In this document: positions 7,351-56,274 of the stretch, piece by piece | Position numbering within the stretch: position 1 is the stretch's first letter | Layout: each line of letters starts with the position of its first letter | Origin: Vicinamibacteria bacterium | GTDB taxonomy: Bacteria; Acidobacteriota; Vicinamibacteria; Marinacidobacterales; Marinacidobacteraceae | Direction of reading: 5' to 3' | DNA length: 64,000 nucleotides | NCBI GenBank assembly: GCA_963422395.1 | Contig: OY729431.1 | Span: 2,464,001 to 2,528,000 of the forward strand | Made by a program: the position numbers and the translations under genes | Notes under the pieces: generated by a model | Told to the model about the DNA's origin: nothing | What the model saw: only the letters and a program-made list of their open reading frames with translations | Databases searched by the model: none

Positions 7351-7928
7351 CCGGACCCGACGGCCGGGTCCTGGAGCTCCCCGAGCTCGGGGAGGTCTTC
7401 GAGGCGGTCGAGTCCGAACCGCTCCAGGAATTCCTGCGTGGTGCCGTAGAGGAGCGGCCGCCCCACCACCTTCTTGCGGCCCCGGGAGCGGACCAGCCGA
7501 AGCCGCAAGAGGGTTCCGACGACGCTCGCCGAGTTCGCCCCGCGCAGCGCGCTCAGCTCGGGCACGGTGATCGGCTGGCGATAGGCGATGACCGAGAGCG
7601 CCTCGAGGGCGGGCTCCGAGAGCCGCTCTTCCCGCTTCGGAGCGAGCAGGCGCTCGATGGCGTCCCGCCAGTCCTCGCCGGTCGTCAGCTGGAAGCCGCC
7701 GGCGACACGCGCCAGACAGAGCCCGGAGCCAGCCGTCGCGCAGCGCGCCTCGAGGGCGGCGAGCGCCGCCCGAACCGCCGCCGGGTCGGCGTCGAGGGCG
7801 CGGGCCAGCGATCCCGCGGCGACCGGCGCACCGTGGGAGAAGAGCAGCGCCTCCACGCCCGCCGCCAGAAGCTCGACTGCATCCGGCGACAGACCGGCGG
7901 CGGCGGGTTCGCAGGAGGCGTCCGGCAT
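7347..7928 (-). CDS. scpB: SMC-Scp complex subunit ScpB
   Basis: VEALLF, LSEPALEALSVIAYRQPIT, GRPLLYGTTQEFLERFGL. Confidence 0.95.
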   Translation of the reverse strand: MPDASCEPAAAGLSPDAVELLAAGVEALLFSHGAPVAAGSLARALDADPAAVRAALAALEARCATAGSGLCLARVAGGFQLTTGEDWRDAIERLLAPKREERLSEPALEALSVIAYRQPITVPELSALRGANSASVVGTLLRLRLVRSRGRKKVVGRPLLYGTTQEFLERFGLDRLEDLPELGELQDPAVGSG

Positions 7929-7941
7929 CCTTTCCGTTCCG

Positions 7942-8793
7942 TCAGCCGGAAGCGGGCCCGGAGGCCGGCCGCGATCCGGGCTCGATCCCCTCGATCCGGA
8001 GGGGACCGAAATCCTGCTCCTGCACGACCGAGACCCGGCAGCGGCGGACCAGTTCCAGCACCGCGAGGAACGCCGCCACCAGCGTGGAGCGATCCACCTG
8101 CCCTTCCACGACTTCGAACAGCAGCTCCTCGAAGTCGCGGGCTGCTCCGGTCGGGACGGCCTCCTCGATCCGTCCGATCATCACCCCGAGGGAAATCCGG
8201 GACCTCGGCAACGGCGGCGGCGGACGGGAACGGGCGCGCACCACTACCCGGCGAAACGCCTCGACCACCGCGAAGAGGTCCACTGGAATGGACTCTCCTT
8301 CGGGAGCTGCTCCGGCCCCGTTCCCTTCCCCCCGCGCATCCGGGAGCGACGGCCCTCGGACCCAGACCGAGCTGCGGGCCTCCAGGCTCCGGCGCAGCCG
8401 GTGCGCCGCGTCCCGGTAACGGGCATAGTCCCGGAGCCGCGCCTCGAGCTCCGCCTGGGGATCCTCGCCGGGGGAGCCGGGGGGCGCCGGGCTCGGCAAC
8501 AGCCGCCGCGCCTTGATGCGAAGCAGCGCGGTGGCCAGCTTGAGGAACTCGGAACCCACCCGCAAGTCCAGCATCTCGATCAGTTCGAGGGCCTCGAGGT
8601 ATTGCCGGGTGATGGAACCGATCTCGATCTGCAGCGGGTCCGCCCGGCCGTCCCGCACCATCCGCAGCAGCAGTTCGAGGGGGCCGTCGAACCCCGGCTC
8701 GCCGCCGGGGCCGGGTCCGCCGTCCCAGCGGATGCGGTAGGCCGCCCCCTCCCCCGAGTCCGAGGCTTCCTGCCGGTAGAGGACCGCCGTCAT
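7942..8793 (-). CDS. scpA: Segregation and condensation protein A (kleisin)
   Basis: FDGPLELLL, EFLKLATALLRIKARRLLP, FLAVLEL; adjacent to scpB. Confidence 0.93.
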   Translation of the reverse strand: MTAVLYRQEASDSGEGAAYRIRWDGGPGPGGEPGFDGPLELLLRMVRDGRADPLQIEIGSITRQYLEALELIEMLDLRVGSEFLKLATALLRIKARRLLPSPAPPGSPGEDPQAELEARLRDYARYRDAAHRLRRSLEARSSVWVRGPSLPDARGEGNGAGAAPEGESIPVDLFAVVEAFRRVVVRARSRPPPPLPRSRISLGVMIGRIEEAVPTGAARDFEELLFEVVEGQVDRSTLVAAFLAVLELVRRCRVSVVQEQDFGPLRIEGIEPGSRPASGPASG

Positions 8794-9809
8794 CGGCTCG
8801 GGAGGCGCACCGCTGCGCGCACCCGTTCCATGGTGGCCCCGGCCGCCTCCGCCGCCTCCCGCCGTCCGGCAGCCAGCACATCACGCACCTCGTCCGGCCG
8901 TTTCTCATAGCCGCGCCGACGTTCGGCGATCGGGGCGACGGCGGCGGCCAGGTGGTCGGCGAGGGCGCTCTTGCACTGGATACAGCCGATCCCGGCGCTC
9001 CGGCAACCGGCTGCCGCCCAGTCCTGGGTGTCCTGGTCCGAGAAGATCCGATGGAGGTCGAAGACAGGGCACTTCGCCGGGTCGCCAGGGTCCCGAAGCC
9101 GCTTCCGCGCCGGATCGGTCTGCATCGTCTTCAGCCGCGACCGGACCGTGGACTCGTCCTCGGCGATCCCGATCACATTGCCGTAGCTCTTCGACATCTT
9201 GCGGCCGTCGGTTCCCGGCAGCCGCGGCGACGGGGTGAGCCGGACCTCCGGCTCGGTGAGCACCTGACCGAATACGGCGTTGAAACGCCGGGCGATCTCG
9301 CGGGTCAGCTCGACATGCGGCTGCTGGTCTTCTCCGACCGGGACCACCGCGGCGTCGTAGATGAGGATGTCCGCCGCCTGCAGTACCGGATAGCCGAGAA
9401 AGCCGTAGGTGTGGAGATCCCGCTCGCTCAACTCCCGGAGGATCTCCTTGTAGGTCGGGACCCGCTCCAGCCAGCCGAGCGGCACCACCATCGAGAGCAG
9501 AAGGTGCAATTCGGCGTGCTCGGGCACCTGCGACTGGACGAACAGGGTGGATCGCGCCGGGTCGAGCCCCACCGCCAGCCAGTCGGTGGCGATGTCGAGA
9601 GTATGGGCGGCCAGCTCGCTGGTGTCGCGGTAGTCGGTGGTGAGCGCGTGCCAGTCCACGATGCAGTAGTAGGCGTCGAACTCGTCCTGCATCGCCACCC
9701 AGTTGCGGTACGCGCCGACCAGGTGCCCGAGGTGCGAGGAACCGGTGGGCCGCATTCCGGAAAGGAGGCGGGGCCGGACGCGGCGCTGGTTCGTAGGGGG
9801 TTTCGTCAT
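8790..9809 (-). CDS. trpS: Tryptophan--tRNA ligase
   Basis: SGMRPTG, HLGH, YPVLQAADIL, VPVGEDQ, KMSKS. Confidence 0.97.
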   Translation of the reverse strand: MTKPPTNQRRVRPRLLSGMRPTGSSHLGHLVGAYRNWVAMQDEFDAYYCIVDWHALTTDYRDTSELAAHTLDIATDWLAVGLDPARSTLFVQSQVPEHAELHLLLSMVVPLGWLERVPTYKEILRELSERDLHTYGFLGYPVLQAADILIYDAAVVPVGEDQQPHVELTREIARRFNAVFGQVLTEPEVRLTPSPRLPGTDGRKMSKSYGNVIGIAEDESTVRSRLKTMQTDPARKRLRDPGDPAKCPVFDLHRIFSDQDTQDWAAAGCRSAGIGCIQCKSALADHLAAAVAPIAERRRGYEKRPDEVRDVLAAGRREAAEAAGATMERVRAAVRLPSR

Positions 9810-22661: not shown

Positions 22662-23759
22662 TCACTCGAGCTCGGCGAGTTCCCTTTCGATTTCGGCTTG
22701 GAGTTGTTGGAACGAGATCGCGCCGCCGATGTAGCGCCCATTCGAGAACACCGCCGGCGTCCCCGTCTGCCCGAATCCCATCGCGGCTTCGAGATCCGCT
22801 TGCACCTGCTCGTAGTGACGGCCGCTGTTCAGGCAGGCATCGAACTCGTCGGTGTCGAGCCCGATCAGCCTGGCATGCTGCTCCAGGGTGTCCGGCGAGA
22901 GGTCTTCGTCGGCCCAGAGCGCGTCGTGGAACTCCCAGAAGCTGCCCTGGTCCCCGGCGCAGAGGGCAGCCTCGGAAGCCTTCTGCGCCCGCGGGTGGAT
23001 GCTGCGCAGCGGATAGTGGCGGAAGACGAGCCGGACCTGTTCCGCCAACTCCTCGGTCTCGCGCATCCGATCCACCGCTTCGTTGAAACGCCGACAGTAC
23101 GGACACTCGAAATCGGAGAACACCACGAGCTCGACCGGAGCGTCCTCGGGGCCGATCGAGGCGTGCCCCGCCGTATCGATCTCGACCCGGTACGCCGGGA
23201 CCGTGAGATCCCACTCGGCCTCGCTGAGGAACTGCTCCCCGGCGAACTCGATGTTCCGGTTCAGCTTCTGGTTGGCGATCTGCCGGCGAAGGTCAACGGC
23301 GATCTCCTCGAGCGGCCGCCCTCCGAACTGCCCGCGGTTCTGCTCGTACACCTGCTGGAGCTCCTCGTTCGAAACTTCGGGCAGGCCGATCACCCGAGTG
23401 TAGTACTGGTTCAGGGTCAATCCCTCGGCATCCGCCGCCTGCGTCAGCAGCCGCTCCCGAGCCGCCCGGATCGCTCCCCGTTCGAGAAGCCGGTGGACCT
23501 CGGTGTAGTACTCGTTCTTGAGCTGCGCGAGCTGCCAGCGATCTTGGTCCGGGAGGGCGTCGAGAGTGAGCTCCTCGCCGTTCAGAATCCCGAGCACCCG
23601 CGAGTCCACCGTCGCCGGCAGGAGCGACTCGGCGGAGCCGGCGCGATCTCCGGAATCCGCCGCCGCACCGCCGCAACCAGCGGCGGCGAGCTGGAAGGCG
23701 GTGAAGAGAAGAGAAACAGCGACAGGGAGCGGAGCGCTCCGACTGAAGAATCTGCGCAT
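22662..23759 (-). CDS. DsbA/thioredoxin-domain lipoprotein
   Basis: Lipobox-like LAAAGC; FSDFECPYC, FRHYPL, cis-Pro GTPA. Confidence 0.9.
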   Translation of the reverse strand: MRRFFSRSAPLPVAVSLLFTAFQLAAAGCGGAAADSGDRAGSAESLLPATVDSRVLGILNGEELTLDALPDQDRWQLAQLKNEYYTEVHRLLERGAIRAARERLLTQAADAEGLTLNQYYTRVIGLPEVSNEELQQVYEQNRGQFGGRPLEEIAVDLRRQIANQKLNRNIEFAGEQFLSEAEWDLTVPAYRVEIDTAGHASIGPEDAPVELVVFSDFECPYCRRFNEAVDRMRETEELAEQVRLVFRHYPLRSIHPRAQKASEAALCAGDQGSFWEFHDALWADEDLSPDTLEQHARLIGLDTDEFDACLNSGRHYEQVQADLEAAMGFGQTGTPAVFSNGRYIGGAISFQQLQAEIERELAELE

Positions 23760-42349: not shown

Positions 42350-43081
42350 ATGGACATCCTGACTCTGCTCACCGCCGCGGGCGCCGGCGTACTGTCGTTC
42401 CTCTCGCCGTGCGTGCTCCCCCTGGTTCCCGGTTACATCTCGTTCGTGTCGGGATCATCGCTGAGCGATCTGGCGGGGGGCGCTCAAGACGCCGCCGCTC
42501 GGGGGCGCCGGCGGCGGGTCATCCGGAACACCGTCGCCTTCGTGCTCGGGTTTTCCCTCGTGTTCGTCGCGATGGGCGCTTCGGCGACCTACGCAGGACA
42601 ATGGCTCGCGGGGAACCGGGTGCTGCTCGGCCGGATCGCCGGAACGGTGATCGTGGTGTTCGGGCTCCATGTCATGGGGCTCTTCAAGATTCCGTTCCTG
42701 AATGTGGAGAAGCGCTTCCACTCGAACCGGGAGCCGGTCAGCCTGTTGGGCTCGTTCGGGATCGGATTGGCTTTCGCCTTCGGCTGGTCGCCCTGTATCG
42801 GCCCCATCCTCGCCGGAGTGCTGGTGCTGGCGGCGAGCCGAGAGACCGTGGGGCAGGGCATCGTATTGCTGAGCGTCTATTCCGCCGGGCTCGGAATCCC
42901 GTTCCTGCTCACCGGCATCGCGGTGGACCGATTCTTCGCCCTCTCGGCTCGGGCCAAGCGCCACTTGCGGGTAGTGGAGATCGTCGCCGGCGCGCTGCTC
43001 ATCGTGATCGGAGTGCTGGTGTTCACCGACAGCCTGCAGGCGCTTTCGCGTTACCTCACCTTCCTGCCCGTCCTCGGCTGA
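42350..43081 (+). CDS. ccdA: Cytochrome c biogenesis protein CcdA
   Basis: SFLSPCVLPLVPGY and GWSPCIGPIL motifs; ~6 TM. Confidence 0.94.
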   Translation: MDILTLLTAAGAGVLSFLSPCVLPLVPGYISFVSGSSLSDLAGGAQDAAARGRRRRVIRNTVAFVLGFSLVFVAMGASATYAGQWLAGNRVLLGRIAGTVIVVFGLHVMGLFKIPFLNVEKRFHSNREPVSLLGSFGIGLAFAFGWSPCIGPILAGVLVLAASRETVGQGIVLLSVYSAGLGIPFLLTGIAVDRFFALSARAKRHLRVVEIVAGALLIVIGVLVFTDSLQALSRYLTFLPVLG

Positions 43082-50573: not shown

Positions 50574-51449
50574 ATGCCCGAAAACACCCTGCTCGACACT
50601 CTGGCAGAGGAGGCCCGGCCCCTGATCTCCGGAGAAGACGGCGAGGGCCCCGAACTCGTCCCCCTCGACCCGGAGCACCCGGGATTCCGCGACCCGGCCT
50701 ACCGCGCGCGCCGGAATGCCATCGCCCGCCTCGCCTTCGGCCACACACCGGGGGATCCGGCCCCAACGGTCGCCTACACCGACGAAGAGCACGGCGTCTG
50801 GCGGCAGGTGCGGGAGCTGCTCGACCCGCGGCACCGCGTCTCCGCCAATTCCGAATACCTCGAGTGCGCGGCCGCGGCGGCGCTCGATCCGGAGCGGATT
50901 CCACAACTCGAAGAAGTGAACGCGCGCATCCGTGCGATCAGTGGATTCCGGATGCAGCCGGTGGCGGGGCTGGTCACTGCGCGCGCTTTCCTCTCGTGCC
51001 TGGCGGACCGCATATTCCTCGCCACCCAGTACATCCGCCACCCGAGCCGTCCGCTCTATACCCCGGAGCCCGATGTCATCCACGAACTCGTGGGGCACGC
51101 CGCATCGTTCGCCCATCCGGCGTATTCCGAGTTGAGCGCACACTTCGGCCGCGCCGCGCGGGCGGCGGACGAGGAGGAGGTCGAGCGGATCGCCCGGCTC
51201 TACTGGTTCACCCTGGAGTTCGGAGCGGCTCTCGAAGACGGTACCCCCAAGGCCTACGGCGCCGGCCTCCTCTCCTCGGTCGGCGAACTGGACCGACTCG
51301 CCGAGGTCGAGCTGCGCCGCTTCGACTGCCGAACGATGGCGGAGACCCCGTTCGACCCAACGGATTTCCAGCCGTTCTATTTCGTGGCACCGAGCTTCGC
51401 CGCCATGAAGGAGGGAGTCAGCGCATACCTGCGCCGTTACGCCGACTGA
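50574..51449 (+). CDS. phhA: Phenylalanine 4-monooxygenase (biopterin-dependent aromatic amino acid hydroxylase)
   Basis: HPGFRDPAYRARR, TQYIRH, YTPEPDVIHELVGH, YWFTLEFG, KAYGAGLLSS, FQPFYFV. Confidence 0.93.
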   Translation: MPENTLLDTLAEEARPLISGEDGEGPELVPLDPEHPGFRDPAYRARRNAIARLAFGHTPGDPAPTVAYTDEEHGVWRQVRELLDPRHRVSANSEYLECAAAAALDPERIPQLEEVNARIRAISGFRMQPVAGLVTARAFLSCLADRIFLATQYIRHPSRPLYTPEPDVIHELVGHAASFAHPAYSELSAHFGRAARAADEEEVERIARLYWFTLEFGAALEDGTPKAYGAGLLSSVGELDRLAEVELRRFDCRTMAETPFDPTDFQPFYFVAPSFAAMKEGVSAYLRRYAD

Positions 51450-51477
51450 CCGCTCGGGCGCGCCGCGCTCTTTTCCA

Positions 51478-51915
51478 TCACTCGCTACCAGACCCTTTCG
51501 AGCGCGCAGCACGACCGACCCCGACTCCGACCCCGAGGGGGACGGAAGTCCAGAGTCCTAGTGCCAGAGGGAGACGAAGTCCCTCGATCGGAAGGAGGAA
51601 CGGGCCGTTCAGACGCCCGGTGAGGATCGCCGTGATCAGCCAGGCGCCGGCTCCGAATGTGATTCCGAGCCCGCCACCGAGAACGAGCCAGTCTCGAAAC
51701 CTCGACTCGAAGAGAGTCCCCAGCCGAGTTCCGATGTGCACCCAAACCGGGAAGCCGAGCAGTATCCCGAAGGAAACGCCGAAACCCATCCGCAGCACAT
51801 CCCACACGGACTCACGCTCTACGGCGACTCCCCACAGAACGAGCCCGATGAAGAAGCCCAACGCCAGGCTCACCCCTGGCCTCACGACACTTGGCGCTAC
51901 TTCGGTTACCGCCAT
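51478..51915 (-). CDS. Small multi-pass membrane protein (145 aa, ~4 TM); candidate immunity/partner protein
   Basis: ATG overlaps the upstream stop (TGATG at 51917-51913); Gly-rich hydrophobic segments. Confidence 0.7.
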   Translation of the reverse strand: MAVTEVAPSVVRPGVSLALGFFIGLVLWGVAVERESVWDVLRMGFGVSFGILLGFPVWVHIGTRLGTLFESRFRDWLVLGGGLGITFGAGAWLITAILTGRLNGPFLLPIEGLRLPLALGLWTSVPLGVGVGVGRAARSKGSGSE

Positions 51916-52208
51916 CAGATCCAACAGGTAGAAAGGCAGTTGCTGAATCGATTCAGACATGCGTTCACTTCTTCGAGGTGTCTGTCGTAGCACTGTTCCA
52001 AGCAATTTTTCGCACCCCAGAACCCGCATTGGCGTGCACATGTCTCAAGGTCATCTTCCGCTGTCCGAAGGCAGTCGGAAAGATTACCGCTGCACTCGGC
52101 CACACAGTCCTGCGGATTGGGTTGGGCACGACCGACAGCTGGAATTATGAGAAGAAGAAGAAGTCCGACATATGTGAGGGAGAATAGAAAAATTCGAAAA
52201 GTCTTCAT
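51915..52208 (-). CDS. Secreted 10-Cys peptide (97 aa precursor), predicted disulfide-stapled helical hairpin
   Basis: AGGAG RBS; Sec signal MKTFRIFLFSLTYVGLLLLLIIPAVGRA; mature part has Cys spacing 3-6-10-3-7-3-10-6-3. Confidence 0.8.
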   Translation of the reverse strand: MKTFRIFLFSLTYVGLLLLLIIPAVGRAQPNPQDCVAECSGNLSDCLRTAEDDLETCARQCGFWGAKNCLEQCYDRHLEEVNACLNRFSNCLSTCWI

Positions 52209-52263
52209 GAGAGTTCTCCTGTTAGGCAGTTTCCGATGATCCATTTGGAAACAGCGGGAATCA

Positions 52264-52674
52264 CTATTCAGTCGAGAGCCGCTGCGACAGCATCTCGAAT
52301 CGTTTCACCTTCGCCTCCGTGAGGCTGGCAAGACGCGCCATCAGCTCAGCCAAATCCTCTTCTTGCATTCCACGCGTGCGAAGCATCGACTCGATTTCGC
52401 GGAATCTGGTTTCATAGAGGGCTCTGAGGTCGATCTCGGCACTCCTTCTGCTCGGGACGAGGGGAGGACCTGGTCCATCGAAGGCAACTGACGCTTCCGT
52501 AACCAGCGGCGCGTACGTCCGGGCAGTGGCCTCCGCCTGGCTCTGATCGACAGTCGCAATGGTTGGTGCCACGACCGAAGGGGTCGAGGTGTTTCCGGTA
52601 CTGTCGCAACCGGAACCGACCGACAGCGCCGCGAAGATCGCAACGAGAAGGACGAGGGGGTTCTTTCGGAACAT
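52264..52674 (-). CDS. Putative lipoprotein, unknown function
   Basis: GAGGAG RBS; MFRKNPLVLLVAIFAALSVGSGC (imperfect lipobox), S/T/P-rich linker, helical C-terminus. Confidence 0.7.
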   Translation of the reverse strand: MFRKNPLVLLVAIFAALSVGSGCDSTGNTSTPSVVAPTIATVDQSQAEATARTYAPLVTEASVAFDGPGPPLVPSRRSAEIDLRALYETRFREIESMLRTRGMQEEDLAELMARLASLTEAKVKRFEMLSQRLSTE

Positions 52675-52951
52675 GACGAGGGTCTCCTCTATGGAAAGTG
52701 TCAAGCCTTTGCTGATAGTTCGAGAAACCGGCCGAGTCGAGGACAACGGTTGCGAAGAATCACCCATCCTCGTGCGTCCTCGGTTGGGTCTCTACGAGTA
52801 CCAACTGGTTTAGCGTGCCCCAATCCAATTTTCAACAGCAGATCCCCCGAAAATATCCTTCAGGCTCGGGATGGACCGGATCGCCGTATGGATTTGACTT
52901 TCGGTCTGGTTGTCGCAAGACTGCAGGTGAGGACCTCGAAGAAGGACGCGA

Positions 52952-54073
52952 GTGGCGGTTTCGGATCTCGAAGATCGGGGTTGCTGGTTCCGTGGCGCTG
53001 CCGGTGAGAATGCGGTCGAAGACGAAGACGAACGGCTCCCCGGAGAGACCGAGGGGCTGCCGGAATCGGGCGACATCATCCCGGAGCCGCCGGTCCCGGT
53101 AGGCGGGGCGGATGACCTGGGCATCGTGGGCCTCTATCTCCGGGACACCCGCCGGTGTGGTCGGCTTACCGGGAAAGATGAACAGCGGTGCGCCCGCTCC
53201 ATGCGGAGGAACGCGCGAGGAAATCGAAAAGCCGAGCAGTCGGCCGCAGAGGCGGCCGCGTTCCATGCCAGCCGCCACCGGATGATCGAGGGGAGCCTCG
53301 GACTCGTCGTTGCGATCGCAAGGGAATACGAACACCTGGGTCTGCCGCTTGAAGACCTCATCCAGGAAGGCAACCTCGGGCTGATCGCGGCAGTGGACAA
53401 GTTCGACCCCGAGCGGAACCTGAGGCTTTCGACCTACGCCGTGACCTGGATCCGAGAAGCGATCTGCCGGGCGCTCTCCCAGAAGTCCCGGACGATCCGG
53501 ATTCCGCTCGACAAACTGGCGATTCGCCGCCGAGCGGCTAAAGTGCATGACGAGATAGAACAGCGGTACGGGAACGAGGCGTGCTGCGGTGGCTCTCGCC
53601 GGGCGCATACCCTGGAGGACGACGCCGGGGAACTCGGAGTGGATGCCGAAGTGCTGCGAACGACGATCCGGCTGGTGCCCGACATCGATCCGCTGGAGGA
53701 CCGGCCGAGCGGCAGGCCATCCCTCTTGGCGTCGCTGCCAGACCCCCAGTCGCCGAATCCGGCGGACCGGGCTGCGGCTGCGGAGCAGCAGCAGCGAGTC
53801 AGGGACGCGGTTTCCGAACTCCCGCCCCGCCTGCAGTGGATCGTGCGGCGGCGCTATGGGCTTTCCGGCGGAGAAGAAGCCGGCTTGGCGAAGGTCGGAC
53901 GCGAAGTGCGACTCTCCGCCGAGCGGGTTCGCCAGTTGCAGCGCCGAGCGCTGCGCCTGCTTCGTGGGATCCACGCTTCTTCTGCCGCGCGCACGGAACC
54001 GATCCGAGGTCGGCCCTCTCGAACCGCTTTGGCCCCTTTCGCCGGAGCGCCGCCCTTCAGATCGCCCGGATGA
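52952..54073 (+). CDS. Sigma-70 family RNA polymerase sigma factor (RpoD/RpoS-like paralog)
   Basis: LYLRD (region 1.2), LEDLIQEGNLGLIAAVDKFDPER, STYAVTWIR, SRTIRIP, RRYGL...LSAERVRQLQRRAL (region 4). Confidence 0.9.
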   Translation: MAVSDLEDRGCWFRGAAGENAVEDEDERLPGETEGLPESGDIIPEPPVPVGGADDLGIVGLYLRDTRRCGRLTGKDEQRCARSMRRNARGNRKAEQSAAEAAAFHASRHRMIEGSLGLVVAIAREYEHLGLPLEDLIQEGNLGLIAAVDKFDPERNLRLSTYAVTWIREAICRALSQKSRTIRIPLDKLAIRRRAAKVHDEIEQRYGNEACCGGSRRAHTLEDDAGELGVDAEVLRTTIRLVPDIDPLEDRPSGRPSLLASLPDPQSPNPADRAAAAEQQQRVRDAVSELPPRLQWIVRRRYGLSGGEEAGLAKVGREVRLSAERVRQLQRRALRLLRGIHASSAARTEPIRGRPSRTALAPFAGAPPFRSPG

Positions 54074-55361
54074 CGACTGCAGTGGCGTCGTCGTCCGGGG
54101 CGCCCCCCCGAAAACGACGAGCGGCGCGGACCACCGCGTCGCACACCTCCGCCGCCGGAGTGCCGAGTTCCCGTTCCCGACGCAGCAGCGCTGCGAGCCG
54201 TTTGCGGCCGTAGAGCTCTCCCCGCCGGTCCGAGGACTCGGTGATCCCATCGGTGTAGAGCGCCAGCAGATCGCCGTCCTCGAGCTGGATATCCTGTTCG
54301 AAGTAGCGCGGCGCAGGAAAGAGACCGACCGGGAGGCCCCCGGCCGGGATCTCCTCCGCCGAGCCATCGGCCCGGATCAGCAGCGGCGGCGGGTGGCCGG
54401 CATTGATGTGGATGAGGCGGCGCAGCGGGACATCGAGCACGCCGTAGAACAGGGTGGCGTACCGGCTCTCGCCGACGCTCTCATAGAGGAGCTGGTTCGT
54501 GCGTCCCAGGATCGTCCGCAGCGAGAAGTTCGAGTGGGCGAGCGAGAACACCGAGGCGCGGAGCGCCGCGACCAGGAGCGCGGCGGGGAGACCCTTGCCC
54601 GCTACATCGGCCACCGCGATCCCCCAGCGATCTTCGCCGAGCGCAACGAAGTCGTAGTAGTCCCCGCCGACCTGGGAGCAGGGCTCGTACACCGCCGCCA
54701 CTTCGAGGCCGACGAGCGACGGGTTGTCGTGCGGCAGCAGGTCGTGCAGCACCTTTCCCGCCACTTCCATCTCGGAGACCAGCTTCCGGCCCTCCACCGC
54801 CTTCTCGTAGAAGAGGATGCGTTCGATGGCGGGAGCGGTTCCGGCCGCCCAGGCGCGGAGTGCGGTTCGGTCGCGCTCGCCGAAGGCCGCCGGCCGCTGC
54901 GATTCGGCGACGACGGCACCGAGGCGGCGGCCGCCCGCCCCGAGGAGCGGGGCGACGACCGCCGAACCGGTTTCCGGGCTCAGGTCGGGATCTTCGAACG
55001 CCATCCCCCCCTGAGCCGACCCGACGAGCTCCGGCCGACCGCTCTCCATGACCTGAGCCACGACCCCGCCCGCCGGAATCTCGCAGCCATCCGGGATTTC
55101 CGTATCCACCAGCTCGCTGGCGCGGCCACGCGCCCGCCTGCAGATCAGGCTTCCGTCGAGGCCGACGATGGTGAGCGTCGCGCGGTCGCAACCCGGCAGC
55201 ACCTGGCGCAGCCCGGCGAGCACGGTGTCCGCGGTGCGCCCGATCTCCAGACTGCGCCCGACCTCCTGGAAGGCTTCGAGCAGTCGATCGGCGTTCGTTT
55301 CGAGCAGGCCCTCGGCGGTCGCCCCTCGACGGTCATCGCTGGGAAGCCGAGGAGCGGGCAC
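54057..55361 (-). CDS. GAF + SpoIIE/PP2C phosphatase (RsbU-like); start uncertain
   Basis: VGGDYYDF, ADVAGKGLPAAL, NAGHPPP, LYTDGITE, DDATAV; N-terminal GAF-like region. Confidence 0.9.
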   Translation of the reverse strand: MPAPRLPSDDRRGATAEGLLETNADRLLEAFQEVGRSLEIGRTADTVLAGLRQVLPGCDRATLTIVGLDGSLICRRARGRASELVDTEIPDGCEIPAGGVVAQVMESGRPELVGSAQGGMAFEDPDLSPETGSAVVAPLLGAGGRRLGAVVAESQRPAAFGERDRTALRAWAAGTAPAIERILFYEKAVEGRKLVSEMEVAGKVLHDLLPHDNPSLVGLEVAAVYEPCSQVGGDYYDFVALGEDRWGIAVADVAGKGLPAALLVAALRASVFSLAHSNFSLRTILGRTNQLLYESVGESRYATLFYGVLDVPLRRLIHINAGHPPPLLIRADGSAEEIPAGGLPVGLFPAPRYFEQDIQLEDGDLLALYTDGITESSDRRGELYGRKRLAALLRRERELGTPAAEVCDAVVRAARRFRGGAPDDDATAVVIRAI

Positions 55362-55408
55362 CGCCGCGTCGAGAGGCCCGGCAGCGAAACGAGAAGGGGG
55401 CAGCGCGG

Positions 55409-56077
55409 TTACCGCATCGCGAAGCAGTAGAACAGGCCGTCGCCTCCGGTTCCCTGGAGGTCCGCCTGCCCGCAGCCGCGCGAGCCGTGGGCCGAGTTCC
55501 ACGAAGAGCCGTCGTCGCCCCCGCCGACCCGGTCGTGGTGCCCCACCCGGGCGCTGCCATCGCCGGCGTTGCTCGTCCAGTCGGCACAGGTGGTGTCCCC
55601 TTCCCCCTGAAAAGCGGTCCCGTCGGCGGCGGTCCCGGTGATGATGTCGTGGCGGTTCACCTCATCGCCGCGGCCGCTGATGACTTCGCCCTTCTCGGAG
55701 ACGGAGTTCTCCTTGCTCAGCAAGTTGGCGTCGCTGTGGAGGCCGGCCCCATCCGCCGCGACCCTCACCCCGTTCGCGTTGTGCCAGGGGCCCGCGCCGA
55801 TGCGGTCTCTGGCGTCCACTGCGCCGCTGCCGGTCGTGCTCAGGTAGGCGCGCCAGGTGAGGCCGTCAGCGGCCATCGCCTCGGAAGCGAGCAGCGCGCA
55901 ATGCGAATCCGCGCCTTCGAGCCCGCCGAGGTCGGCGCCGTCGCCGGGACCACGGCTGGTGAGGAAGAAAGTCATCTCCTCCTGCGCAACACGCGCCGTC
56001 TCCGGGCTCCCCGAGGAAAATGCGAAAAGCGCCGGAACGCCGGTGGCGACCAACAGGGGCAGTGCGATGCGCTTCAT
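55409..56077 (-). CDS. Secreted lectin-like protein (C-type lectin/endostatin-like fold)
   Basis: Signal peptide; DLGGLEGADSHC, WRAYLST, ARDRIGAGPW, TCADWTS, GLFYCFA. Confidence 0.8.
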   Translation of the reverse strand: MKRIALPLLVATGVPALFAFSSGSPETARVAQEEMTFFLTSRGPGDGADLGGLEGADSHCALLASEAMAADGLTWRAYLSTTGSGAVDARDRIGAGPWHNANGVRVAADGAGLHSDANLLSKENSVSEKGEVISGRGDEVNRHDIITGTAADGTAFQGEGDTTCADWTSNAGDGSARVGHHDRVGGGDDGSSWNSAHGSRGCGQADLQGTGGDGLFYCFAMR

Positions 56078-56274
56078 GGAAGGCTCCTTTTCCGGTCGAT
56101 TCGCCGGACCCGTCATTCTAGGAGTCTTTTCGGGGGTTCGCTCGGGAAGTTACGGATGCCATCCGAGGCAGCCGGGCATGAGCGCCTCCTCCCCCCGGGG
56201 CCGACAGGTCGAACCATTGCCGCAAGGAGCAGATCCGCAGCCACCGCTCCAACTCCACCGGCGGCGCGGATTCC

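Follow-up and report, generated by a model that had tools for sequence, protein, structure and literature searches.

A mirror-symmetric ten-cysteine protein from a marine acidobacterium, predicted to form a five-rung disulfide hairpin and encoded in a lipoprotein and membrane-protein cassette beside an RpoS-like sigma factor gene

The window analysed here is a 64,000-nucleotide stretch of the genome of a Vicinamibacteria bacterium (assembly GCA_963422395.1, contig OY729431.1, positions 2,464,001 to 2,528,000 of the forward strand). At 51915..52208 on its minus strand it contains a gene for a 97-amino-acid protein, made of a 28-residue Sec-type signal peptide and a 69-residue mature part with ten Cys residues in mirror-symmetric order. 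Sequence register, Cys covariation and structure modelling together indicate that the exported protein is very probably a two-helix hairpin closed by five nested disulfides, and its sequence makes it a member of an undescribed family. The hairpin gene is the middle one of a lipoprotein / hairpin / four-transmembrane (4-TM) cassette, which is divergent from the gene of an accessory RpoS-like sigma factor. The cassette is tentatively read, at a little under an even chance, as a putative envelope module that sits in the periplasm, is tethered to the membrane and is controlled by a sigma factor of its own. The features of the hairpin gene, in window coordinates, are:

52215..52220, minus strand: ribosome-binding site AGGAGA of the hairpin gene, 6 nt 5' of the ATG at 52208, read from the sequence
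52125..52208, minus strand: Sec-type signal peptide of 28 aa, read from the sequence, with a putative cleavage site; homologues have equivalent N-termini
51918..52124, minus strand: mature 69-aa hairpin domain with ten Cys, 7.8 kDa, isoelectric point (pI) 4.4

The start at 52208 is preferred to an in-frame upstream ATG at 52244 because the AGGAGA stands 6 nt before it. The signal peptide reads as MKTFR, 20 hydrophobic residues and VGRA|Q, and a twin arginine is missing both from it and from the N-termini of the homologues. The Cys residues, which make up 14% of the mature protein, are at positions 7, 11, 18, 29, 33, 41, 45, 56, 63 and 67, separated by gaps of 3,6,10,3,7,3,10,6,3, and each of the five mirror pairs adds up to 74. 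The original prediction, made from the letters alone, had described this reading frame and its mirror spacing, and both are read exactly at these coordinates. The i+4, i+7 and i+11 steps run along a single helix face, as had been proposed; at 100 degrees per residue, the Cys of each arm fall inside an 80-degree sector of their helix. Of all open frames in the 2.9-Mb single-contig genome that reach 55 aa or more (25,936), the hairpin frame alone has the exact 10-Cys mirror. The other, shorter mirror-Cys frames read in this genome, two 8-Cys ones included, were discarded as artefacts that run through tandem-repeat DNA. The mirror pattern is not a product of chance.

The structure of the mature protein was modelled with AlphaFold2 on an alignment of homologues, which gives two helices (residues 4-32 and 38-65) with a mean predicted local distance difference test score (pLDDT) of 92.2 and a predicted template modelling score (pTM) of 0.74, in agreement with the antiparallel helical hairpin that had been foreseen. 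The disulfide geometry was judged from the sequence register and from Cys covariation, not from the AlphaFold2 coordinates. In the 15-sequence alignment C1, C3, C8 and C10 are invariant, while six sequences have lost Cys, each time as whole predicted pairs (C2+C9, C4+C7, C5+C6): four paralogues from genomes G014 and G022 are without C2, C4, C7 and C9, protein P0014 is without C4 and C7, and a G011 protein is without C5 and C6. The chance that all losses hit whole rungs is ~6e-4 for one four-Cys and two two-Cys losses, the four paralogues being counted as one ancestral loss; with so few events among related sequences, this figure is a guide and not a test. Because Cys are lost just as predicted partners, the nested C1-C10, C2-C9, C3-C8, C4-C7, C5-C6 ladder proposed in the original prediction is supported.

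The sequence between C5 and C6, which had been pictured as a GFWGAKN loop presented at the tip, is not a conserved feature: this loop varies from 5 to 11 residues, is not conserved in sequence and lies outside the predicted lipoprotein interface described below. The genome encodes the means for oxidative folding, namely VKOR and DsbA domains in one open frame and a second DsbA, together with a DsbD_TM protein, which could serve a reducing or isomerising branch. Two such genes are within the window itself, a DsbA-family domain in a 423-aa open frame (~22689..23129) and a DsbD_TM (CcdA-like) gene (~42359..43021).

That the hairpin belongs to no described family, another point of the original prediction, agrees with the searches: no Pfam or NCBIfam family matches the protein, and Foldseek against the PDB returns nothing that reaches E 0.001. 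Of 48,161 chains compared by VIA-align, 15 score Z 8 or more, all of them generic hairpins (top Z 8.8), and neither structure search provides a functional lead. An exhaustive phmmer search of 1.84 billion representative proteins yields just six matches at E 0.001 or better, the top one with 52% identity, and a profile search of a word-indexed protein collection yields nine; with the single protein as query, neither the word-index search nor a scan of genome contigs returned anything. The best score in the ESM Atlas is 0.83, under the 0.9 taken as a lead.

Two relatives come from metagenome-assembled genomes of Vicinamibacteria / Ca. Marinacidobacterium. In a sample of the class, the family profile matches 10 of 401 genomes, all from the organism's own family (its own genome and 9 of the 27 others, hence 10 of 28), and none of the 373 genomes of other families; in a sample of the phylum it matches 1 of 401, the organism itself, and none of the other 400. 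These whole-genome searches scored at most 14 candidates per genome, and their negatives mean not found in the genomes searched. The expectation that homologues would keep the Cys holds, since in an alignment of 12 homologues the ten Cys, and nothing else, are invariant. The net charge spans -6 to +5, and surface residues show no conservation across the family; close orthologues do retain the hydrophobic face that is predicted to contact the lipoprotein. Pairwise Nei-Gojobori ratios of nonsynonymous to synonymous substitution (dN/dS) between hairpin orthologues are 0.13-0.26, similar to those of the partners in the same cassette (lipoprotein 0.26, membrane gene 0.25-0.27, sigma factor 0.24), and the hairpin gene is therefore under purifying selection. 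The ribosome-binding site, these ratios and the homologues with invariant Cys identify it as a real gene.

The hairpin unit occurs in several architectures: alone, fused to a lipoprotein, in arrays of tandem genes, and three times over within one protein. The metagenomic proteins P0006 and P0007 are 246-247 aa long and have a signal peptide; P0007 has three tandem 10-Cys units (3,6,10,3,8-11,3,10,6,3), and P0006 combines at least one such unit with two other matching stretches and an additional Cys-rich tail. In a soil-type lineage (GC ~0.69) cationic hairpin genes stand two in a row. A short open reading frame (ORF) lies just 5' of these tandem genes at L111 137..457, L115 1107..1406 and L116 3813..4346; its product ends in MKE(I/L)..(I/L)EELEERIAPS... 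followed by a Pro/Asn/Gly-rich tail, and may resemble a leader-type peptide.

An extra Cys is a further variation. In loci with two hairpin paralogues (L033 1097..1704, L029 1076..1713; L009 6923..7210, 8420..8803) an extra Cys stands right before C1, forming a CC motif and giving each paralogue 7 or 11 Cys. Even numbers are found in the fused forms and in the orthologues of the window's hairpin in G008 (first copy) and G005. The two hairpins of one locus might be joined by an intermolecular disulfide; the extra Cys also occurs in P0003, P0009 and the second G008 copy, so that its link to paired paralogues is not strict.

This variety of settings, together with the unconserved surface, would suit a generic hyperstable spacer or binding domain that has no single function and is used in varied extracytoplasmic proteins, and whose link to the cassette is lineage-specific. 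Such an explanation is unlikely: within the Vicinamibacteria family the cassette partners recur through rearrangements and duplications, and close orthologues keep the hydrophobic face predicted to bind the lipoprotein.

The cassette and the sigma factor gene occupy the following positions in the window:

52264..52674, minus strand: lipoprotein-like partner gene, 136 aa, with GGAGA before the ATG at 52674
51478..51915, minus strand: 4-TM glycine-rich membrane partner gene, 145 aa, whose product carries a conserved GLW(N/T) motif in its last TM segment
51913..51917, minus strand: TGATG overlap, in which the hairpin stop and the membrane-gene start share one base (translational coupling)
52808..52835, minus strand: promoter-like motif TTGAAA-N16-CTAAAC upstream of the cassette, of putative promoter function
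52952..54073, plus strand: RpoS/RpoD-like sigma-70 gene of accessory clade A, 373 aa, divergent from the cassette

The lipoprotein partner has a signal peptide up to Cys23, a Pro/Ala/Thr-rich linker and a C-terminal pair of amphipathic helices (~residues 75-134); Cys23 is invariant in an alignment of six homologues, and the protein has no Pfam or NCBIfam family, nor a name in the sources searched. The 4-TM partner likewise has no Pfam or NCBIfam family and no name in the sources searched, with a best ESM Atlas score of 0.79 (under 0.9), and its alignment leaves only W122 and G128, both in the last TM segment, invariant. Its profile matches 11 of the 28 family genomes, mostly those that bear a hairpin.

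The lipoprotein-hairpin-4-TM triad recurs in G008, G005 and G010, and overlapping gene ends are found in loci L002, L003 and L004 as well. In G014 and G022 one lipoprotein gene is accompanied by two tandem 3-rung hairpin genes and one membrane gene. In four genomes (three aligned sequences from genus g2, and P0008 from genus g7) the hairpin forms the C-terminal domain of a longer lipoprotein, and the fused gene again precedes the membrane gene where the contig permits. G010 (L009 6560..9177) has two hairpin-membrane pairs with an insertion sequence (IS)-type transposase gene between them (7681..8508, minus strand); the lipoprotein gene stands with the first pair only and no sigma gene is nearby. 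G024 contig 17 shows three identical cassettes of fused hairpin, membrane and sigma genes (~19 kb, 3.18 Mb and 4.49 Mb) with identical scores, which may be true repeats or an assembly duplication.

The hairpin is predicted to dock on its lipoprotein. Complex prediction for the hairpin and the mature lipoprotein (residues 24-136) gives a score of 0.62 (runs 0.66, 0.62 and 0.62) against 0.05 for the best control; this mark was attained for 58 out of 80 solved complexes and for 2 out of 110 mismatched pairs, counts that hold only roughly here because own alignments were used for the prediction. The runs share at least 91% of contacts, with a partner pLDDT of at least 64. In the predicted interface, lipoprotein residues 75-103 and 107-134 face the non-Cys side of both hairpin helices, which contribute L19, L26, L42, L50, V53, L57, F60, L64 and W68 and, among the Cys, only C33 and C67. 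From these contact lists, and not from a fold named by the tool, we infer a heterodimeric four-helix bundle.

The predicted binding agrees with the existence of the fused forms. An AlphaFold2 model of the fused form from three sequences (pLDDT 64, pTM 0.55) has a disordered linker, helices at 73-88, 94-117 and 122-147, and the hairpin at 164-221; over residues 66-225 it superposes on compact helical bundles of a generic kind (VIA-align top Z 10.6).

The sigma factor shows Sigma70_r2 and r4 matches, and its best NCBIfam model is RpoS at E 1.4e-52, under the cut-off of that model. It matches RpoS/RpoD models over residues 103-347, has region 1.2 and is not of the extracytoplasmic function (ECF) type; it is also the only element of the locus that PADLOC matches, as MzaA-like. 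In the class-sample search an RpoS-like sigma gene stands within 1 kb of 12 of the 16 hairpin matches; those without one are two in G010, the second G008 copy and one G006 copy at a contig end. The sigma gene is divergent for the 5-rung and fused types and co-directional for the 3-rung type.

A sigma factor tree of 57 rows (54 of the 56 RpoS-like places, two identical G024 copies being left out, and three RpoD-like outgroup members) was computed as a quick LG+G4 tree, for which the program warns of long branches. It splits the RpoS-like genes into two clades. The slow clade comprises 27 rows and covers 26 of the 28 genomes, with G017 represented twice and G015 and G016 missing; none of its members adjoins a hairpin. 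The fast, long-branched clade A, with 27 rows and an SH-like approximate likelihood ratio test (SH-aLRT) support of 99, contains all ten hairpin-adjacent sigma factors of the tree. Clade A, present in 0-4 copies per genome in the tree, is the sole clade found beside hairpin cassettes; an eleventh member adjoins a 4-rung hairpin and a twelfth a decayed cassette. The idea that a cassette stands beside every clade-A sigma gene was dropped, as 16 of the 27 have no hairpin within ~3.5 kb.

The promoter-like element upstream of the cassette recurs, in the form TTGNNN-N16-CT(A/T)AA(C/T), upstream of six of nine related cassettes, and at three loci the sigma gene, too, is faced by an element like it. 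The second strict copy in the organism's own genome lies ~290 nt upstream of a decayed second cassette, and the region 51300-53100 has no consensus sigma-70 promoter. The placement of the motif, not its count, suggests a cassette-specific promoter, which the neighbouring sigma factor would read.

Beyond the sigma gene, a GAF-SpoIIE/PP2C phosphatase gene (54057..55502, minus strand) converges on its 3' end, and an ORF at 55409..56116 (minus strand) has weak DUF1554 / LenA-LenB-like matches. The SpoIIE/GAF phosphatase was considered as a part of the system and dropped, as it is not conserved in five related loci that have a hairpin beside a sigma or lipoprotein gene.

The likely location of the exported protein follows from its signal: in a diderm acidobacterium, a Sec signal alone places it in the periplasm by default. 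There the 69-aa protein would fold, under oxidising conditions, into an antiparallel hairpin with five nested disulfides, the Cys stripe forming the seam between the two helices. The second, hydrophobic face of the hairpin would pack on the two C-terminal helices of the lipoprotein encoded upstream, so that a membrane-tethered heterodimeric four-helix bundle may result, whose partner in the membrane is probably the translationally coupled 4-TM protein. Transcription of the cassette would start from the dedicated TTGNNN-N16-CTAAAC promoter, recognised by the accessory RpoS-like sigma factor encoded next to it. Such an assembly would most plausibly serve to report on, or to withstand, the periplasmic redox or thiol state through its fold, which depends on oxidation.

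A more specific and rather improbable version is a trans-envelope switch of an undescribed kind for a non-ECF sigma factor. In it the hairpin, able to fold only once its five disulfides have formed, would be a redox-gated ligand that docks, when folded, on the lipoprotein and the 4-TM protein, and a reducing periplasm or failed oxidative folding would unfold it and so change the activity of the private sigma factor by which the cassette is transcribed. As in modules of a sigma factor and its anti-sigma factor, a sigma gene stands beside a membrane component; an ECF-type sigma factor and an anti-sigma domain were not found at the locus.

The cassette is subject to turnover. One public DNA run holds two contigs for the locus and so represents a natural presence/absence polymorphism. 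The contig at depth 11.5 joins 51874 to 52227, skipping 352 nt (51875..52226), so that the hairpin gene is gone together with its ribosome-binding site and the membrane gene loses its first 13 codons; the contig at depth 6 retains the hairpin gene, altered by D52Y, by one synonymous change and by the loss of 3 nt within the signal peptide. The organism's own genome has a decayed second cassette (G000:C1:1132142-1132900), in which a frameshifted membrane-partner remnant, with GLWNG still readable and the only other membrane-partner match in the genome, is found together with a short lipoprotein-like ORF and no hairpin. At L104 4421..5607 (G006 contig 36) a decayed cassette has a lipoprotein frame that runs into the last rung of a 3-rung hairpin (…AECRRIRDRETRECDI), followed by two membrane-partner copies in one open frame, beside a clade-A sigma gene. 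The deletion contig, the insertion sequence in G010 and the two decayed loci, one in G006 and one in the organism's own genome, show that the cassette is accessory and often lost.

These features lead to a rival explanation, in which the hairpin is the toxin of a bacteriocin-like system, the 4-TM protein and perhaps the lipoprotein protect the producer, and the sigma factor is a dedicated regulator. It is the main rival, though less likely than the envelope module. TcdR/UviA-type sigma factors are dedicated regulators of toxin and bacteriocin genes, and the arrangement itself, a small exported peptide with a Cys framework whose gene overlaps that of a following small multi-TM protein, is of the expected architecture, as far as architecture goes. 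The two tandem peptides with one membrane gene in G014 and G022 resemble two-peptide bacteriocin loci, and in G010 peptide-membrane pairs are duplicated as units with an insertion sequence between them. Conservation of the Cys only, the wide range of charge, and the patchy distribution (10 of 28 family genomes and none of those sampled elsewhere in class and phylum) point in the same direction, as do the hairpin-less contig of the public run, the G006 locus that keeps two membrane genes after hairpin loss, and the tandem arrays of diverging hairpin genes in other lineages. The dip in GC fraction at the locus, 0.50-0.58 against ~0.68 in the flanks, suggests accessory DNA. Helix-loop-helix glycocins with nested disulfides also exist, as described in PMC12457901.

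On the other hand, the Sec signal alone would leave a toxin in the periplasm of its diderm producer, and neither an exporter, a double-glycine leader nor a lysis gene occurs among the neighbours scanned. The window peptide is acidic (pI 4.4), and the domain is part of a lipoprotein in the long forms of genera g2 and g7 and threefold repeated in the 246-247-aa proteins, both unsuited to a diffusible toxin. The gene-wide dN/dS carries no arms-race signal, and no PADLOC or bacteriocin family matches the peptide. The original prediction had listed a toxin, a bacteriocin, a signal or a host-interaction effector as possible roles; the free secreted form that these share is doubtful given the periplasmic default of a Sec signal, the lipoprotein-tethered relatives, the predicted lipoprotein binding and the low pI, while a bacteriocin-like role stays as the rival just described. 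The Sec location, the lipid-anchored relatives, the acidic protein and the sigma gene that co-duplicates with the cassette are the reasons for preferring the envelope module.

Several observations weigh against the envelope module. The patchy family, the deletion form, the decaying cassettes and the duplication of peptide-membrane pairs would fit toxin and immunity instead. The link to sigma genes has exceptions: the two hairpin-membrane pairs of G010 lack one, and of the 16 clade-A sigma genes without a hairpin within ~3.5 kb one adjoins a decayed cassette, while the remaining 15 have no cassette within that distance, the neighbours read for two of them being unrelated housekeeping genes. No lipoprotein, 4-TM or sigma gene was recognised beside the soil-type tandem hairpins on the four contigs read. 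The strict promoter motif is not enriched, with 2 matches in the own genome against 0-4 in shuffles. The 4-TM protein has short soluble segments only, no conserved Cys and no recognisable anti-sigma domain. Sequence homology between the lipoprotein and the N-terminal domain of the fused forms was tried and rejected, as hhalign matches the lipobox region only, at a probability of 25%. Finally, AlphaFold2 is blind to the difference between a disulfide and a metal-bridged thiol.

A different explanation is a Csp-like thiolate metal store or chaperone, in which reduced Cys stripes bind Cu(I) or another soft metal within a helical bundle. The high Cys content with its one-faced i+4, i+7 and i+11 spacing would suit it, the Cys thiols of Csps bind Cu(I) in a four-helix bundle and Csp1-type members are periplasmic (PMC7558416), and layer-mates in such a core could be lost jointly too. 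It is nevertheless very unlikely. No DUF326/PF03860 match is found in the protein or the whole genome at E up to 1, and the signal is of Sec type, compared with Tat (twin-arginine translocation) in Csp1 as that source describes it. A protein exported unfolded would meet DsbA/VKOR; only the Cys are invariant, leaving no conserved Met or His entry site; and in the predicted bundle just C33 and C67 touch the partner, so that the Cys point to the hairpin seam and not to a bundle core. No copper-handling family is present among the seven neighbouring ORFs scanned against Pfam. The Sec in place of Tat export, the absent DUF326 and the Cys face at the seam are what disfavours a Csp-like store.

Helical hairpins with disulfide staples have been described in defence peptides of plants, in CHCH proteins of mitochondria and in a small number of Gram-positive bacteriocins, and to our knowledge they always have two or three rungs. 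A conserved five-rung hairpin in bacteria would be the longest natural ladder of its type known to the authors, on a non-exhaustive literature search. Its 3-, 4- and 5-rung variants provide a natural series for studying the oxidative folding of nested disulfides and could serve as hyperstable scaffolds. The fast-evolving accessory RpoS-like sigma clade travels with a lipoprotein/hairpin/4-TM cassette that no database names. If this link is regulatory, it would give a non-ECF sigma factor an input route of a new kind; if the cassette is a toxin-immunity system, this uncultured marine lineage of acidobacteria would possess a new class of bacteriocin. The parts of the cassette are small enough for synthesis or for production in E. 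coli, which makes both readings testable without culturing the organism.

Among known systems, the plant alpha-hairpinins are similar to the hairpin in being helix-loop-helix peptides stapled by nested disulfides between CX3C motifs. They have two or three rungs, in contrast to five in the hairpin, and about half of its 69 residues. They are defence peptides cut from a plant precursor, while the hairpin is bacterial, has its own ribosome-binding site, is Sec-exported and acidic, and its gene is accompanied by those of a lipoprotein, a 4-TM protein and a sigma factor. The analogy, drawn already in the original prediction, is reflected in the PDB sequence search, where vicilin-type hairpinin peptides make up all five of the entries matched by the family profile (E 0.0026-0.12): 7uv2 (chain A, E 0.0026), and 7uv4, 6o3q, 7lvg and 7lve at E 0.022-0.12. 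The alignment covers the inner C29-C45, mostly four Cys and a few flanking residues, and homology to alpha-hairpinins is not claimed because the match is marginal and rests largely on those four Cys. PMC11591084 (Table 1) defines alpha-hairpinins by a 4C motif CX3CX4-20CX3C or a 6C motif CX3CX3CX4-20CX3CX3C, with no three or more further Cys outside the core unless these form another hairpinin motif. The C29-x3-C33-x7-C41-x3-C45 core of the hairpin has the 4C motif, so that its two innermost rungs resemble a plant alpha-hairpinin, but the protein departs from the extra-Cys rule with six more Cys (7, 11, 18, 56, 63 and 67) at x6 and x10 spacings.

The glycocins sublancin, glycocin F and thermoglycocin, like the hairpin, consist of two loop-joined alpha-helices with nested disulfides (PMC12457901). 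According to the same source, they are RiPPs (ribosomally synthesised and post-translationally modified peptides) of Firmicutes, S- or O-glycosylated, with a leader cut by a C39 peptidase transporter, and they have two nested disulfides, to which a third may be added in a C-terminal loop, compared with five nested ones in the hairpin. Unlike glycocins, the hairpin has a Sec signal, and no glycosyltransferase or peptidase-transporter family is found in the seven neighbouring ORFs scanned.

CHCH-domain and small-Tim proteins (twin Cx9C, twin Cx3C; PF06747) are also antiparallel helical hairpins whose folding requires the oxidation of mirrored Cys pairs; they have two disulfides and are imported into the eukaryotic intermembrane space via Mia40. 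The hairpin (P0001) does not match PF06747 at E up to 1, its relative P0006 stays below the cut-off with E 0.078 and 13.6 bits against 27.2, and the x3, x6 and x10 spacings differ from the x9 of CHCH proteins.

Csp1 and Csp3 (DUF326) share with the hairpin the Cys-rich helices, the placement of Cys on one face and the existence of periplasmic members, but are single-chain four-helix bundles with reduced thiols that bind 13-20 Cu(I), the periplasmic type using Tat (PMC7558416). The best superposition is on the C-terminal hairpin of an anopheline anti-platelet protein (4okv_F), an insect salivary protein, with Foldseek TM-scores of 0.76/0.79, a root-mean-square deviation of 1.5 A over 59 columns, a VIA Z of 8.2, a Foldseek E of 0.26 and 17-19% identity. 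For the modelled hairpin this likeness is a fold analogy alone, as generic hairpins score equally well.

In control of the CnrYXH type, a membrane-tethered periplasmic protein with a helical hairpin and a small membrane protein act with a neighbouring sigma factor, and CnrX chains are among the weak Foldseek rows at E 3-5. The sigma factor of the cassette is RpoS/RpoD-like and not ECF, and neither an anti-sigma domain nor a conserved metal site is detectable; what the cassette has in common with CnrYXH is its architecture only.

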